The notes under the pieces: generated by a model
What the model was told of the DNA's origin: nothing
Databases searched by the model: none
What the model saw: the letters and a program-made list of their open reading frames with translations, nothing else
Made by a program: the position numbers and the translations under genes
In this document: positions 19,424-41,781 of the stretch, piece after piece
Layout of the letters: the number at the start of each line of letters is the position of its first letter
Numbering within the stretch: the first letter of the stretch is position 1
IMG/VR virus record: IMGVR_UViG_3300044608_000291
DNA from: an uncultured virus (IMG/VR IMGVR_UViG_3300044608_000291)
Lineage: Duplodnaviria > Heunggongvirae > Uroviricota > Caudoviricetes
Reading direction: 5' to 3' (one strand)
DNA length: 64,000 nucleotides

Positions 19424-20170
19424 CTAATTAATATATACAGCTTTAGAAAGACAAAGTTTATTGTAGTCGTTTGTGCCTACAAACCCCATGTAGTCGATAC
19501 GTCCAAATTGCGTGTCGTCTTTACCGTATATAGCGACCAGCTTGCCGCCAAGGGTCAAGTGCCCTTTTAAGTTATCTGGGCGATAATATTCGCCAAAGGC
19601 AAATCTATTGCGTATTTCCGTGGCTTGTCTAGGGGCGTCTTGAGTCAAATACTTGATATACACGTTACGTACGAACAATGGGCCAGTAATGTTCAAGCTG
19701 GCTTGACCCCTATATCTTAATGGATCGCCGTAACTACGCTTCTTAATATTTGCAACAACCGCGTTAATCACTTTTTCGTAGAATGGTTCGCGTCCACATG
19801 AATACAAATTCATGTTTTCAAAATATTTCCCCGGCCTACTTAGAAACACGATGTTTTTGGTAGTAGGCTCAACTTTAACAACGGGGATGATGGACTGATC
19901 AAAGTACCATCCCCCATACTCATACAACAAGCAGTAGCGTAGTAGATCGGCGCGGAACGCATATGAGGCTAACGAGTTAAACGCCGTCAGAGTTTCTCGA
20001 CCAAACTTCTTCAAGAATTCCTGTGCTTCCGGGTTCGTATAAAGCTGATAGTTACAGTCGCCGTATACGTCTAGGACAGCTTTTTTCTTAGCAGCGAAAA
20101 CACCCGCACACTGCGTCAGGTTGATCTGAAGCTTATCCGGGTCGCACAGGAATATCTGAAAAACGTTCAT
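19424..20170 (-). CDS. Glycosyltransferase, GT32/Och1-like
   Basis: RADLLRYCLLYEYGGWYFD and ITGP motifs; DxD degenerate (DQS). Confidence 0.8.
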   Translation of the reverse strand: MNVFQIFLCDPDKLQINLTQCAGVFAAKKKAVLDVYGDCNYQLYTNPEAQEFLKKFGRETLTAFNSLASYAFRADLLRYCLLYEYGGWYFDQSIIPVVKVEPTTKNIVFLSRPGKYFENMNLYSCGREPFYEKVINAVVANIKKRSYGDPLRYRGQASLNITGPLFVRNVYIKYLTQDAPRQATEIRNRFAFGEYYRPDNLKGHLTLGGKLVAIYGKDDTQFGRIDYMGFVGTNDYNKLCLSKAVYIN

Positions 20171-20436
20171 CCGTAGAAGACGGTAGCCGTAGCGTTACTG
20201 ACGGTCGCGTACAGCAAGCTCGATACAAGAACGCCGTCTTCAGGAATTACGACCGAAAACGGGGTGCCGTTCGCAAGCGTAGTGACCGACAGGATCGTAG
20301 CGCCACCATCGCCATTGGTGAAGACGATTAACCCAGCGGTATCGCCGGGCACAATCAGAGCACCACGAAGCCGCGTCCGCGCCCCATAGACAACTCCGGT
20401 AGCTGAGACGTAAGCGGATTTAACGTCAGTTTTCAT
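20167..20436 (-). CDS. Small conserved beta-rich virion protein
   Basis: 89 aa; TDVKS...RTRLRG...IPEDGVL...TVFYG. Confidence 0.7.
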   Translation of the reverse strand: MKTDVKSAYVSATGVVYGARTRLRGALIVPGDTAGLIVFTNGDGGATILSVTTLANGTPFSVVIPEDGVLVSSLLYATVSNATATVFYG

Positions 20437-20570
20437 GGCTGGTTACCCGTGGGTTGTTGGGGTTGCGCGGGTGGGGGCGCAGGTTTGTTCAACAATTTAG
20501 CAAACGCTGCTTTAATTTGCTCTTGCTTTTCTTTTGGGTAGCTATCAAATATTTCTTTCATATTGTTCAT
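20433..20570 (-). CDS. 45-aa micro-ORF, copy 2 (not in ORF track)
   Basis: MNNMKEIFDSYPKEKQEQIKAAFAKLLNKPAPPPAQPQQPTGNQP; paralog of 22776-22916; ATGA-coupled to the next gene. Confidence 0.7.
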   Translation of the reverse strand: MNNMKEIFDSYPKEKQEQIKAAFAKLLNKPAPPPAQPQQPTGNQP

Positions 20571-20575
20571 AATAA

Positions 20576-21025
20576 TTACCCCGCAAGAATGGTGTTAATC
20601 ACGTTCAAGTTAATTATTGCATATACGTTGCCGCCGTATTCCCAAATGCCAGAAAAAGACGCAACAATATAACTAGCGGATGTACTAGTGCCTGTGACAG
20701 TTGCAATATTTAAATCTTGGATATTAGAATTGCTATTAAAATTAATTTCGACCCCAGTAAAAATTACCGCATCAAAACCCGCCATCGGCGCAATTGTTAG
20801 AGTAAGGTTGCCATCTGGGTAATGAAATTCCCAAAGAAACGTCGCAGTTTGACCAACTTCTGTAAACGCCGGTAATGTGTAAGTAGTACCTCCGGGCGTA
20901 ACCGGGATGATAGTAGGCGAACTGCCCCCGCCACCGCCACCACCTACAGGCGTCCAGACTCCATTAACTAGTTCTTGAAAGCCATTCTGTGACCGAAACG
21001 GTCCTGATACCGTTGAAGTACCCAT
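20576..21025 (-). CDS. Putative capsid decoration protein, paralog 3
   Basis: Begins MGTSTVSGPFRSQNGFQELVNG, poly-Gly linker, beta-rich C-domain related to paralog 1. Confidence 0.7.
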   Translation of the reverse strand: MGTSTVSGPFRSQNGFQELVNGVWTPVGGGGGGGSSPTIIPVTPGGTTYTLPAFTEVGQTATFLWEFHYPDGNLTLTIAPMAGFDAVIFTGVEINFNSNSNIQDLNIATVTGTSTSASYIVASFSGIWEYGGNVYAIINLNVINTILAG

Positions 21026-21027
21026 GA

Positions 21028-21507
21028 TTACTCCGTAAAGGTAATTCGTTTCTTAAACACCGCTGGGTTGCCAGCGTATATACATCCGCCTTCGTACTCG
21101 CCCGCCGGTACAACAGACCCAGCTCCAATTACTGCGTGATCACCAATCCTGCATGGGCCTAAAACTATCGACCCCGCCCCGATGAACACGCCTTTACCGA
21201 TTGTGATGTCGTAGCCCGTTTCTATAACACCATCTTTGCGCAGCTTACCTTTCTTGGCGATGTCATGCGTACCTGCGATTAACATACACCGCTGCCCAAG
21301 AAAGCTGTACTCGCCCATCGTAATACTGCCCGACGCTACATTCAGCACCGCCTCACCGTCGCAATCTACTGTTTCGTGGACATTGATCCGAGGGTGGTTG
21401 CGCCAATCTCTATCAAATCTGTTTGCCTTATGATGATCTTGAACGCGCGGGTACTTCCATAAAAAGTTAAACACCTGCTCCAACAATTGGGCAATCGTGT
21501 TATGCAC
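21028..21507 (-). CDS. Hexapeptide-repeat (LbH) sugar O-acyltransferase
   Basis: ITIGKGVFIGAGSIVLGPCRIGDHAVIGAGSVV...YAGNPA. Confidence 0.9.
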   Translation of the reverse strand: MHNTIAQLLEQVFNFLWKYPRVQDHHKANRFDRDWRNHPRINVHETVDCDGEAVLNVASGSITMGEYSFLGQRCMLIAGTHDIAKKGKLRKDGVIETGYDITIGKGVFIGAGSIVLGPCRIGDHAVIGAGSVVPAGEYEGGCIYAGNPAVFKKRITFTE

Positions 21508-22303
21508 TGGCAGCTACCTGTTTTCTTCGAAGTGCGTTTTCGTGAATTGCGTACGCGGTATCTAAAATCCAATGCTGTTTCCGCACTGGTTCTGCATTAC
21601 CAATAATAGGATGCGAGAACCGCGAGTAATGCACGTTGTCTTTATTGTTATACAAAAAGAAGTGCCCCGTGTGCCCGCCGGGCATGATGGTGTAGACCAG
21701 CCCAGCGTCGTTGTCTGTGCGGTACCGGGTGTACGGATGCTTGTGCAGGATCGGCATGATTGCCCGCGTGTATGGCACAGGGCCAGTGAGGCGGATCACG
21801 CCTAGCTTCCCACTGAGTTCACGGTTTGCCGGGTCGTGGATGTTACGCACCACGCGCTCGATGACTGCCTCTAGGAACGGATGCTTAGGCGCTGCGATCA
21901 CGTGCCACTGCTGGAACTCACCGTGCTCTGGTGCATCCCCATCAAACATACCTTTTGGTACATCTGCCCAATGGGACAGGATGTACTCACTGTTTGCAGT
22001 GAGCTTATCAAGCGGCATGATTACCGAACTCTTGATGTCCAGATATACGCCGCCCACTGCGTAGATCAGCAGATACCGAAACAGATCCGATCTCGCCGCG
22101 CCGTAGCTAGGATTAATCAGGTTGTACGTGTCCAACATCTCCTGACCGTAGTGCTGCTTGATAAACTCCACGCAGTCATCGTCGGTATAGAAGTTGTGCG
22201 TCCACCCCGGATTTTTAGCTACAAGCGAGGCGATGTTCTCTTCAATTTTCGGGTGTAATCCCGTCCGTTTGAAGAATGTCTGATGGATCTGTTTCGGGAT
22301 CAT
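21500..22303 (-). CDS. Glycosyltransferase, GT32/Och1-like
   Basis: IPKQIHQT, NPGW, AARSDLFRYLLIYAVGGVYLD, PKHPFL and LTGP motifs; DxD degenerate (DIK). Confidence 0.9.
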   Translation of the reverse strand: MIPKQIHQTFFKRTGLHPKIEENIASLVAKNPGWTHNFYTDDDCVEFIKQHYGQEMLDTYNLINPSYGAARSDLFRYLLIYAVGGVYLDIKSSVIMPLDKLTANSEYILSHWADVPKGMFDGDAPEHGEFQQWHVIAAPKHPFLEAVIERVVRNIHDPANRELSGKLGVIRLTGPVPYTRAIMPILHKHPYTRYRTDNDAGLVYTIMPGGHTGHFFLYNNKDNVHYSRFSHPIIGNAEPVRKQHWILDTAYAIHENALRRKQVAASA

Positions 22304-22310
22304 GGTTTAA

Positions 22311-22766
22311 TCAAGGAGGAGTGGTAACAGAACCGTTGATGACATCAATGACTGCCATCCAGTTAATGCTAGACGACATGCCGTAAGGCGTACTGTTAAT
22401 ACGAACAAACGTACAATTCACCATTAACGCAATACCGGGCAAGCTTCCGTCATCATTATCCCCATAAAAAATGAACGACGGGGTAATTGAGTTAAATCGT
22501 TTTAACAAGCTGCCATCTTCAGCGGAAATAATAAAACCGCCTTCGGCATCGGCGTTTGTCGGGCTGACAATTTGCACCGTAATTCTATCGCCAACAGCGG
22601 CGCTAGCCGGTAGCTGGTACGTGCCGGGGAAATCTGCGGTATTAATAGTTACAACAGCGCCACCACCGCCACCGCCACCGCCACCGATGGGGGTCCAGAC
22701 GCCATTAACTAATTCTTGGAAGCCGTTTTGTGACCGGAACGGGCCGGATACCGTTGAAGTACCCAT
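22311..22766 (-). CDS. Putative capsid decoration protein, paralog 2
   Basis: Same 22-aa N-terminus, Gly9 linker, divergent C-domain; AAGGA SD. Confidence 0.7.
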   Translation of the reverse strand: MGTSTVSGPFRSQNGFQELVNGVWTPIGGGGGGGGGAVVTINTADFPGTYQLPASAAVGDRITVQIVSPTNADAEGGFIISAEDGSLLKRFNSITPSFIFYGDNDDGSLPGIALMVNCTFVRINSTPYGMSSSINWMAVIDVINGSVTTPP

Positions 22767-22775
22767 GATTTATCC

Positions 22776-22916
22776 TTAAGTCGGTTGTTGGGGTTGCGTT
22801 GTGGCAGGAGGAACGGTGGGGGTAGAAAGCTTACCGAACAGCTTTTCTACGTTTGCCTTGATCCGTTCTTGCTTTTCTTTTGAGTAGCTCTCAAAAACTT
22901 CTTTCATGTTGTTCAT
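22776..22916 (-). CDS. 46-aa micro-ORF, copy 1 (not in ORF track)
   Basis: MNNMKEVFESYSKEKQERIKANVEKLFGKLSTPTVPPATTQPQQPT. Confidence 0.7.
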   Translation of the reverse strand: MNNMKEVFESYSKEKQERIKANVEKLFGKLSTPTVPPATTQPQQPT

Positions 22917-22921
22917 AATTA

Positions 22922-23482
22922 TTAACCCCCGCCAATTAAATTGGCCGCAGTTATGCCAATGATCGCGTATGTATCGCCTGAGTATACAATTGTGCTTACA
23001 AAAGTAGCGGTAAAAAGAGACGTAGCCATCGTCGGGTTTGCAACCCCGACTGAGTTCATGCCTGTGTTTTGAGAAATGTTATTGAAAGAATCAGAAGTAA
23101 TAGCAAAAAAGAATATTACATCTACCCCGGGCATGGGCGCCATTGTTACTTCTAGGTAATCGCCTGACCCACTAGAATTATGAAACTCCCAAGCAAAACT
23201 AGCAGTTTGTCCGGGTGCTGTAAACGCCGGGAGTGTATAAATAGTTGGGGAATTACCGCCGACCCACGGAATAATAGTCGTATTACCCCCGCCGCCACCG
23301 CCGCCGGTGGCGTAGTTCGGAATATTTAGATTGCTACCAACAAGGGTAGCAGGGCCTGAAGTGCCAGTGGTGGTAAGAGACAGGGGACTACCGCCCCCGC
23401 TTACGGGCACCCATTCGCCATTAACTAATTCTTGGAAACCGTTCTGAGACCTAAAAGGCCCGGATACCGTTGAAGTACCCAT
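22922..23482 (-). CDS. Putative capsid decoration protein, paralog 1
   Basis: First gene after the MCP; same N-terminus; extra LTTTGTSGPATLVGSNLNIPNY segment; GAGG SD. Confidence 0.72.
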   Translation of the reverse strand: MGTSTVSGPFRSQNGFQELVNGEWVPVSGGGSPLSLTTTGTSGPATLVGSNLNIPNYATGGGGGGGNTTIIPWVGGNSPTIYTLPAFTAPGQTASFAWEFHNSSGSGDYLEVTMAPMPGVDVIFFFAITSDSFNNISQNTGMNSVGVANPTMATSLFTATFVSTIVYSGDTYAIIGITAANLIGGG

Positions 23483-23487
23483 TTTGA

Positions 23488-23565
23488 AACCTCACATGCG
23501 AGTCGCGTATCAGTCTGCATGTCGTCGCCGGGTCGTCTGATACGCTGGGCTTGAATACCCCGGAT
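23488..23565 (-). ncRNA. Candidate structured 5' leader (three interleaved helices)
   Basis: Transcript CCGGG..GCGUAUCAG..CCCGG..ACAUGC..CUGAUACGC..GCAUGU-GAGG: three perfectly complementary pairs in pseudoknot order. Confidence 0.6.
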
Positions 23566-23590
23566 GGCAGAGTTTTATCACATAATATAT

Positions 23591-23620
23591 AAAAAAGAAA
23601 GGGGGCCGAAGCCCCCCTTC
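23591..23620 (-). terminator. Rho-independent terminator after the major capsid gene
   Basis: Minus strand GGGGGC-UUCG-GCCCCC followed by UUUCUUUUUU. Confidence 0.9.
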
Positions 23621-23632
23621 CCTACACCCCGA

Positions 23633-24559
23633 TTAGGCCGGGGGAGTCGGCGCTGCACCAGCCGAGCCATAGACGCCCAGCGGATCCGAAACACCGAACG
23701 AATAACGCTCACGGGCCTTGTACCGAGCATTGCCGGTGTCGAAGTCTGCGTCCATACCCGTTTGCATCGGGGTACGAATGAAGTGCTTCAGACCGTTGGG
23801 CACGTCGGTGGTCAGGAACCACGCGTTGTTATCAGTCAAGAAGTGGTTAATCGTGTAACCCTCGGGGATCGACCCGTTGTTCTTCAGGGCGTTGATGTCG
23901 TTATCCGTCGTACCGACACGAAGCTCGGTCTCAAGAATACGAGTTGCAACGAACTGAAGCGACGGCGGGATGATCAGTTTCCGGGGCTTAGCAGCGATCA
24001 GCAGACCACGTTCGTCAGTCCACGCAGCGATCTGAATAACCGCATCTTCAAGCGCAGTCTCATTCAGATCCGTGGCAACGGCCGGGACGTTGCTGTTAAC
24101 ACCACCATTGACCAGCGGGTGATTAGCCGAGAAGAGCGACTGACCGTCGCCGTACACCACAGCAGGATCAAAGCCATTGTTCAGAATCGCAGCGGCTTTA
24201 ACTTGCTTGGTGTACGCCATCGCGCGAGCGAGCGCTTTGGTATAACGCGACGAGAGCGTGTCGTACAGGTTGTCCTCCATCGCCTCTTCGGTGAGGGAGA
24301 AGCCCATAGCGATCGTCTCGTGGTTGTACCGAGCGGTCCATGCCTCTTGTGCGTTGTCGTAAGCGATGGCAGCACCCTCGCTCTTGACCGGCGCAGCCGA
24401 GAAGCCCGACAGCTTGGTTTCCTCTTCGAACGAACGCTCAGAGGTCTCGGTGGCAAAGATTTCTTTATGCTCTTCGCCGTACCGCTTGTACTCCATACCA
24501 AACAGGGCATTAAGTCCCGGGAGGAGTTCTTTCAGTAGTTGTGCGCGTGAAATAGCCAT
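23633..24559 (-). CDS. Major capsid protein
   Basis: 308 aa; MAISRAQLLKELLPGLNALFG...EEAMEDNLY...RYKARERYSFG; GGAG SD; follows scaffold; terminator after. Confidence 0.92.
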   Translation of the reverse strand: MAISRAQLLKELLPGLNALFGMEYKRYGEEHKEIFATETSERSFEEETKLSGFSAAPVKSEGAAIAYDNAQEAWTARYNHETIAMGFSLTEEAMEDNLYDTLSSRYTKALARAMAYTKQVKAAAILNNGFDPAVVYGDGQSLFSANHPLVNGGVNSNVPAVATDLNETALEDAVIQIAAWTDERGLLIAAKPRKLIIPPSLQFVATRILETELRVGTTDNDINALKNNGSIPEGYTINHFLTDNNAWFLTTDVPNGLKHFIRTPMQTGMDADFDTGNARYKARERYSFGVSDPLGVYGSAGAAPTPPA

Positions 24560-41696: not shown

Positions 41697-41781
41697 GCGA
41701 CAGTGACGGAATAGGTAGACGTGGCGGACTTAAAATCCGCCGCCCTTGGGCGTGCCGGTTCGACTCCGGCCTGTCGCACCA
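41697..41781 (+). tRNA. tRNA-Leu (UAA)
   Basis: Acceptor GCGACAG/CTGTCGC, GGTAGAC D-loop, anticodon stem GCGGA/TCCGC with TAA at 41731-41733, long variable arm, GTTCGAC, encoded CCA. Confidence 0.95.

Follow-up and report, generated by a model that had tools for sequence, protein, structure and literature searches.

A pseudoknotted leader RNA over the translation start of capsid decoration genes in aquatic phages, related to the orphan motif Mu-gpT-DE

The described RNA that comes closest to the one analyzed here is Mu-gpT-DE, a motif that reportedly originates from Weinberg et al. in 2017. Rfam types it as sRNA (RF03012) and draws it with two stems and an unpaired loop of 13 nt, without a lone C-G pair or any pairing to the AUG. 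In the part of Rivas 2020 consulted (PMC7657543), two extra covariations are given for RF03012, typed as loop or non-Watson-Crick contacts and not as a new pseudoknot; according to the same part, the ZWD version of the motif has 11 pairs versus 9 in Rfam and may be broader. Six rediscoveries of RF03012 appear in the accessible supplements of Fremin 2023 (PMC10690425), and the motif strings of the RNA described below were absent from three of these supplement files. The main-text passages available from PMC5737381 do not mention gpT. Within the literature searched, mainly open-access papers, we found no description of the long form, of its symmetric junction or of the pairing to the AUG, nor any case of decoration-protein control by a structured leader, although supplements of Weinberg 2017 and Fremin 2023 may hold the motif.

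There are precedents for structured leaders in phage genes. The T4 genes 32 and 43, subject to autogenous translational repression by gp32 and gp43 (PMC3014915, the sections available), and the P22 scaffolding protein, which is autoregulated (bioRxiv 2022.12.13.520362, in the portion seen), have operators in which a structured leader is proposed to bind the product of its own gene once this outnumbers the primary target, and the one of gene 32 is pseudoknotted. We saw no homology with them, and in our case it is the RNA itself that pairs over the start, while the product is a predicted decoration trimer. The start hairpins of T4 e, soc, 49 and I-TevI, among them the decoration gene soc, likewise hold the SD or the AUG in a helix (same sections of PMC3014915). 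However, those are simple hairpins relieved by an internal late promoter, whereas the putative promoter of our RNA precedes the complete fold. Polynucleobacter-1 RNA (RF01718) is similar in being a freshwater and estuary motif, probably cis-regulatory (PMC2864571, partial text), but it has another sequence and size in the alignment rows compared, and Rfam gave no match to it in the window. Polynucleobacter-1, Ocean-VI and potC were all discarded as the identity of our RNA, their sequences in the portion of the PMC2864571 supplement consulted being different.

The window, that is, the whole stretch of 64,000 nucleotides of an uncultured virus that was analyzed, carries a capsid gene whose product is 62% identical to the capsid protein of pelagiphage HTVC023P and 72% to that of Pag-Yong1. 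The leader RNA sits between the terminator of the capsid operon and a 186-aa gene that starts at 23482 (minus strand). The features of the locus are as follows.

23633..24559, minus strand: major capsid protein gene, HTVC023P-type group (PHROG 371 major head, E 4e-23)
23594..23623, minus strand: terminator-like intrinsic hairpin and U tract, end of the capsid operon
23572..23580, minus strand: putative extended -10 element, TG-A-TAAAAC
22922..23482, minus strand: regulated gene, 186-aa capsid spike/decoration protein (AlphaFold2 pLDDT 74, predicted homotrimer)
22311..22766, minus strand: second paralogue, same N-terminal peptide, without leader RNA (the model has a single match in the window)
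21500-22303 and 19424-20170, minus strand: DXD glycosyltransferases (PF04488)
21028-21507, minus strand: hexapeptide acyltransferase
20576..21025, minus strand: third paralogue, same N-terminal peptide, without leader RNA (again by the single model match)

Thus, from 19424 to 23482 on the minus strand, three spike paralogues with near-identical N-termini are interleaved with two DXD glycosyltransferases and an acyltransferase, an arrangement which suggests that the capsid spikes are glycosylated. The covariance model of the leader matches only once across the window. A repeat of 75 nt, with 84% identity between its copies, is found after both the first and the third spike gene (22854-22928 and 20508-20582), and each copy opens a short unlisted ORF starting MNNMKE. 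Elsewhere in the window we noted a perfect 21-nt tandem repeat and repeats of 81-84 nt at 1-147 and 384-694, probably a low-complexity coding region, and a lone tRNA-Leu(TAA) gene at 41697-41781 (plus strand).

A consensus scan gave no sigma-70 site at the leader promoter spot in the window. Among homologous leaders the most -10-like hexamer has its end 6-9 nt upstream of P1a, the first strand of the fold, in 134 of 231 (38 were too weak for scoring), which would put the transcription start, whatever the class, 1-3 nt 5' of the first helix; in the window it is predicted at A23565, 2 nt 5' of P1a. A start downstream of P1 and P2, which would have spoken against the sequence-only reading of this locus, is not what these positions point to, the likely start being just upstream of P1. 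In metatranscriptome contigs from 4 of 24 runs the capsid operon was covered and the leader and spike gene hardly, although such contigs lack start, strand and level and the spike gene is hypervariable.

The leader itself was first read as a chain of three helices, P1, P2 and P3. We confirmed all six arms on the minus strand in the order P1a-P2a-P1b-P3a-P2b-P3b and, as had been claimed, GAGG (23493-23490) downstream of P3b, followed by 7 nt and the ATG at 23482. That first reading had missed two hairpins, P4 and P5, and the conserved core. The complete set of elements, all on the minus strand, is listed in RNA order.

23559..23563, minus strand: P1a CCGGG, RNA 5' end, pairs into the P4 loop (homologue alignments)
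23537..23545, minus strand: P2a, whose last G pairs with C23513 and closes the junction (homologue alignments)
23536, minus strand: junction A number 1, between P2 and P4
23526..23535, minus strand: P4 hairpin, arms 23535-34/23527-26, 2 bp here
23532-23528, minus strand: P1b CCCGG, inside the P4 loop
23524..23525, minus strand: junction A number 2 (23525) and C23524 of the lone C-G pair
23517..23522, minus strand: P3a ACAUGC, strand against the initiation region, in the loop closed by C23524-G23515
23514..23515, minus strand: G23515 of the lone pair and junction A number 3 (23514)
23505..23513, minus strand: P2b
23491..23502, minus strand: P5 hairpin CUC/GAG, arms 23502-00/23493-91, its 6-nt loop being P3b (from the sequence)
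23499-23494, minus strand: P3b GCAUGU, loop of P5
23490..23493, minus strand: Shine-Dalgarno GAGG, 3 of 4 bases paired in P5

To look at this structure in relatives we gathered 240 viral loci from three capsid queries, and in addition 50 loci from genome contigs, six annotated phage regions and 120 hits by DNA pattern alone. The pattern fixes several core bases, so core counts come from capsid-found loci only. A descriptor scored 59 of the 81 sequences of the first set (three false, two duplicates), and a covariance model, built without P1 or P3, matched 49 of 80 marine loci, 21 of 80 CRP-901-like loci (strongly) and 28 of 50 genome loci. The 187 distinct capsid-found cement starts gave 174 parsed leaders and 13 unparsed, the latter including 7 that could be anchored by hand, one model match and about 5 that seem to be devoid of the motif. 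From the start-region parse, 13 of 286 were dropped as false or mis-registered and 4 more were left out of the start-codon table. The 50 loci from genome collections are on MAG or single-cell contigs with scattered taxa, from which no host emerges. The leader is present in the cultured phages HTVC023P, HTVC027P and DSL-LC04, and cultured members infect Pelagibacter, Roseobacter and a gammaproteobacterium. It is absent from Pag-Yong1 and from Alcaligenes phage QDWS535; with these two and the approximately five motif-less starts, the leader is, by its distribution, not essential across the phage group. Pag-Yong1 has a different strong structure preceding its minor capsid gene (locus L082, 4905-5030, z -2.9, no model match), with a stretch complementary, by eye, to the SD of that gene. 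Two other loci (L124 and L148) have reduced leaders upstream of the cement start that keep only the hairpin flanked by A..AC. The nearest virus record found (G001) has a leader identical to that of the window and adds no variation.

The helices had been considered unlikely to arise by chance. Shuffling alone gives only modest support for a scan of 64 kb: when the 78 nt of 23565-23488 were dinucleotide-shuffled, 12 of 20,000 sequences could form three disjoint Watson-Crick helices, each with 5 bp or more, that together made up 20 bp or more. Nested folding of the leader is also unremarkable (z = 0.51). It is the homologues that confirm the helices. In a sequence-only MAFFT alignment of 57 rows (A1), including the three cultured phages, both-sided changes were seen at 22 of 23 pairs; its rows were picked by a descriptor that demands pairing, and the percent paired is hence not independent there. 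The second alignment (A2) holds the 49 model matches among the 80 marine loci, which were outside model building, and P1 is not one of the modelled pairs. There, paired cells amounted to 92.4% in P1, 96.3% in P2 and 90.5% in P4, and 4 of the 5 P1 pairs were doubly changed, while sliding the whole structure as a control left 23-38% paired versus the 92.4% of P1. With a parser for which P1 and P3 were optional, P1 was detected in 134 and the upstream P3 in 135 of 139 long leaders. The covariation expected of a real structure is thus present in both alignments; by this comparative evidence the three helices are real and covarying, and the leader RNA is common to hundreds of related aquatic phages.

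The chain P1-P2-P3 does not hold as the motif itself: P1 is dispensable, minimal relatives being devoid of it, and what stays invariant is a junction with three As. This conserved core is a three-way junction of P2, P4 and the lone C23524-G23515 pair, with one unpaired A in each linker. Each junction strand reads R-A-Y (in the window, GAC three times), so that, as read from the alignments, the arrangement is pseudo-three-fold. With a parser that favours the consensus, junction positions 1, 2 and 3 are A in 171, 172 and 173 of the 174 parsed capsid-found leaders, and the lone pair is C-G in 172 and U-A in 2, with zero one-sided changes. Two more U-A pairs are found among the 7 hand-anchored leaders, making the swap apparent in four leaders of differing subtype (L100, L045, L076 and L396); the hand parse of another (L381) is ambiguous. 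A helix-only parse, which is noisy, recovers the junction in 74-83%, and junction A number 1 is A in 159 of 191. Five hand-anchored leaders of the RSTFEG class have a C-U mismatch at the P2-closing pair, which breaks the symmetry. P4 has in most relatives 3 bp, C-N-G, and its middle pair is seen as UA, AU, GC and CG and is paired in 57/57 rows of A1 and 49/49 of A2. P5 has at least 3 bp in 136 of 191 long leaders, in forms such as GUG/CAC, CUU/AAG and CUC/GAG, and shuffling partners among the 136 gave a mean of 56 and a maximum of 73.

How this RNA relates to Mu-gpT-DE depends on the form that is compared. The window did not match RF03012 at gathering (49 bits), nor at E up to 10 over 20400-23700, and Rfam on the window plus 20 long-form loci returned nothing except one tRNA. 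Related phages, on the other hand, do contain the known motif: RF03012 scored 53-72 bits in 6 of the 20 sources searched, all minimal forms, while a hybrid leader scored 19.7 bits and the long-form model weakly matched 10 near-identical minimal loci (E 0.049). The proposed Rfam search therefore came out negative for the window and positive for the minimal form of its relatives. Both RNAs follow a gpT-like capsid gene and directly precede the SD and AUG of a gene from one common family, and both share a core of stem, A, C-N-G hairpin, AC, loop, GA and stem, the RF03012 consensus being present in the window as G23537, A23536, C23535-G23526, A23525, C23524, G23515, A23514 and C23513. The differences are of size and of elements. 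The window form has about 80 nt versus 53 and adds P1, a P2 of 9 bp, P5 and an upstream P3b. Besides, the outer stem of Mu-gpT-DE is short and its 3' arm carries the SD, whereas in the window P2b ends 12 nt before the SD and it is P5 that covers it. By context and core features the window RNA is a relative of Mu-gpT-DE, although not a member by score. The minimal form was already known from Rfam, and the long, doubly pseudoknotted form appears to be an unrecorded variant in the literature found.

We can distinguish three forms: the long one of the window, the minimal and the hybrid. The junction loop of the long form pairs on the SD or immediately 5' of it; at least one SD base is paired in 155 of 191 long leaders and at least three in 131. 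The minimal form, without P1, has the SD within P2b and the loop paired over the AUG, and the hybrid combines P1 with the loop paired over the AUG. Pairing over the AUG reaches codon 2. In 37 capsid-found minimal or hybrid leaders the second codon is GCN wherever the loop carries GCC (25) and GGN wherever it does not (12), with zero exceptions; adding the pattern-found loci gives 63 and 14 with one register exception (n = 78). Long forms, which have no such codon need, show GCN without a GCC loop in 89 of 135. On the capsid tree 6 of 6 independent pairs agree in the match of loop and codon 2 (p 0.03), although leader and codon 2 are some 20 nt apart and can move as one cassette, so these six pairs may overstate independence. 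Minimal and long forms interleave on that tree (10 changes over 167 rows). The energies of the P3 duplex and of SD:anti-SD pairing are close in the long class (medians -7.3 vs -6.3 kcal/mol), as a switch would need; estimates of SD accessibility without pseudoknots were uninformative. The best evidence for translational repression is that the start site is covered in every form, and this pairing makes it likely that the folded RNA is a translational OFF structure.

The RNA follows the cement gene rather than the capsid gene, judging from gene order. In 56 of 167 distinct leaders the distance to the capsid stop exceeds 200 nt, with other genes between, and the RNA stays with the cement/spike gene. 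Of the 120 pattern-found loci, 112 have a cement-like start by regular expression and 5 by eye; the rest are two truncated motifs beside the capsid gene and one chance match. The downstream gene is annotated as cement protein in DSL-LC04 and, in Pag-Yong1, as minor capsid protein. Homologues and gene linkage thus sustain the proposal that the RNA is conserved, acts in cis and occupies the region where translation of a capsid decoration gene begins. Between capsid gene and leader there is a hot spot for insertions (after the capsid stop in L004, L005, L006, L010, L012, L016, L018 and others), and many of the inserts resemble, by eye, homing endonucleases. One locus (L008, 1706-1777; L063 is similar) has there a PqqA peptide gene (PF08042, E 6e-11).

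The 186-aa protein of the window has an N-terminal attachment peptide, a Gly linker and a beta knob in its AlphaFold2 model (pLDDT 74). Pfam, PHROGs and PDB sequence searches gave it no name, and Foldseek gave no match at E 0.001. The knob resembles trimeric phage spikes with Z of 6.6-7.5, below the tool's mark of 8; with the Pa223 capsid spike the values were Z 6.6 and rmsd 3.1 over 84 aligned residues. In Pa223 the N-terminal domain alone anchors the spike to the capsid, according to the part consulted of bioRxiv 2025.06.11.659172. The product is predicted to be homotrimeric: the trimer scored 0.86 versus 0.06 for the best control, the runs agree in at least 77% of contacts, partner pLDDT is at least 80 and residues 2-19 are in the interface. 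Of the solved structures, 20 of 30 dimers attained the mark used, as did 1 of 23 single chains; for three copies with an alignment of our own the mark is only rough, and the pass may reflect likeness to solved trimeric spikes. The commonest product family, a sister at the same position, folds like the cement proteins of Pam1, KHP40, KHP30 and GP4 (E 1e-4 to 3e-4). The only part common to the differing downstream products is the N-terminal peptide, which has few basic residues and comes in at least four classes under one unchanged junction.

What would hold the structure closed is more conjectural. The leader would be the 5' end of the cement/spike transcript, with its own putative promoter behind the capsid-operon terminator. 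Covariation shows that it folds into the pseudo-three-fold junction of P2, P4 and the one-pair arm, with a single A between each, and that this arm presents the loop that pairs over the ribosome-binding region, presumably turning translation off; in the long form P1 would lock the 5' end onto P4 and stabilise the fold. Trimers without a mature capsid might then bind the junction by their three free N-terminal arms and keep P3/P5 shut until DNA-filled capsids take them up and translation resumes, so that decoration protein would be metered to capsids. We favour autoregulation by the unassembled trimeric product as the trigger, at somewhat less than an even chance, on the grounds of the predicted trimer, of the N-terminal arm as the only part common across products and of the precedents of T4 gp32/gp43 and P22 scaffolding protein; the three-fold symmetry that product and junction would share makes it our best guess. 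The more specific version, in which the three R-A-Y strands would be read by the three arms of a cement homotrimer in a symmetry-matched count of mature capsids, is tentative and rather unlikely. Against autoregulation in general go the variation of the arm in at least four classes under one junction, its few basic residues and the C-U mismatch that breaks the symmetry in the RSTFEG class. That the junction is invariant although the protein encoded behind it differs in fold and in N-terminal class would suit another protein ligand acting on the same OFF structure, such as free major capsid protein (far more conserved), scaffold, or a host RNA-binding or ribosomal protein. We consider this improbable, and any ligand from the host would need broad conservation, given hosts as different as Pelagibacter, Roseobacter and a gammaproteobacterium.

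About equally improbable is that no ligand exists and the leader damps translation, kinetically or thermally, and shields the 5' end, with ribosomes loading only before P3/P5 closure or on breathing, P1 hiding the 5' end from decay and the three As being tertiary glue only. A transcription start predicted, in every class, only 1-3 nt upstream of the first helix agrees with such a shield, and so does a local hairpin in competition with P1 that P1a can form in 148 of 231 leaders (swap control mean 120, maximum 135); in T4, structure alone damps e, soc, 49 and I-TevI according to the sections of PMC3014915 available. Nevertheless, T4 obtains relief from a promoter inside the structure and here the -10 is upstream of the whole fold, the minimal class does without P1, and constant damping would be odd for a cement needed in capsid-like amounts (in GP4, by the abstract, 540 per 540). 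A compact, multistem, pseudoknotted junction with near-invariant nucleotides also has what the passages seen of PMC5737381 list for sophisticated RNAs. A phage riboswitch, with a metabolite or ion bound at the three-A junction to stabilise the lone C-G pair and P3 over the start, would fit this and the occlusion of the initiation region indicated by covariation, and sequestering the SD in a pseudoknot is a common riboswitch logic. It is nonetheless quite improbable, as the regulated gene is structural, no metabolic link appears at any locus examined and only about nine positions are conserved in the RNA. Least probable is an RNA that cleaves itself or serves in processing, a small RNA acting in trans or a 3' element that acts on the capsid mRNA, as the name gpT Downstream Element might evoke; the double pseudoknot and conserved junction have the size of a small ribozyme and RF03012 is typed as sRNA, but the capsid terminator precedes the RNA, insertions do not part it from the cement gene, and it pairs into the coding start and matches no ribozyme family in Rfam, in line with the early remark that it does not fit the hammerhead or HDV topologies. 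The covariance models of known small self-cleaving ribozymes (hammerhead, HDV-like, twister, pistol, hatchet) gave no match.

The HTVC023P-type phages are among the most abundant groups in the ocean. From its distribution, this RNA is widespread and structurally richer than first reported: the long form, missed by Rfam, is yet the commoner one in our sample (135 of 174 parsed leaders). An orphan Rfam motif becomes in this way a testable element of translational control, with a target gene, a probable repression mechanism and natural compensatory variants, and its occurrence in the cultured HTVC023P, HTVC027P and DSL-LC04 makes it testable in real infection. If the trimer reading were true, it would give the orphan Mu-gpT-DE a function and extend the motif across HTVC023P-type, Roseobacter CRP-901-type and freshwater phages.
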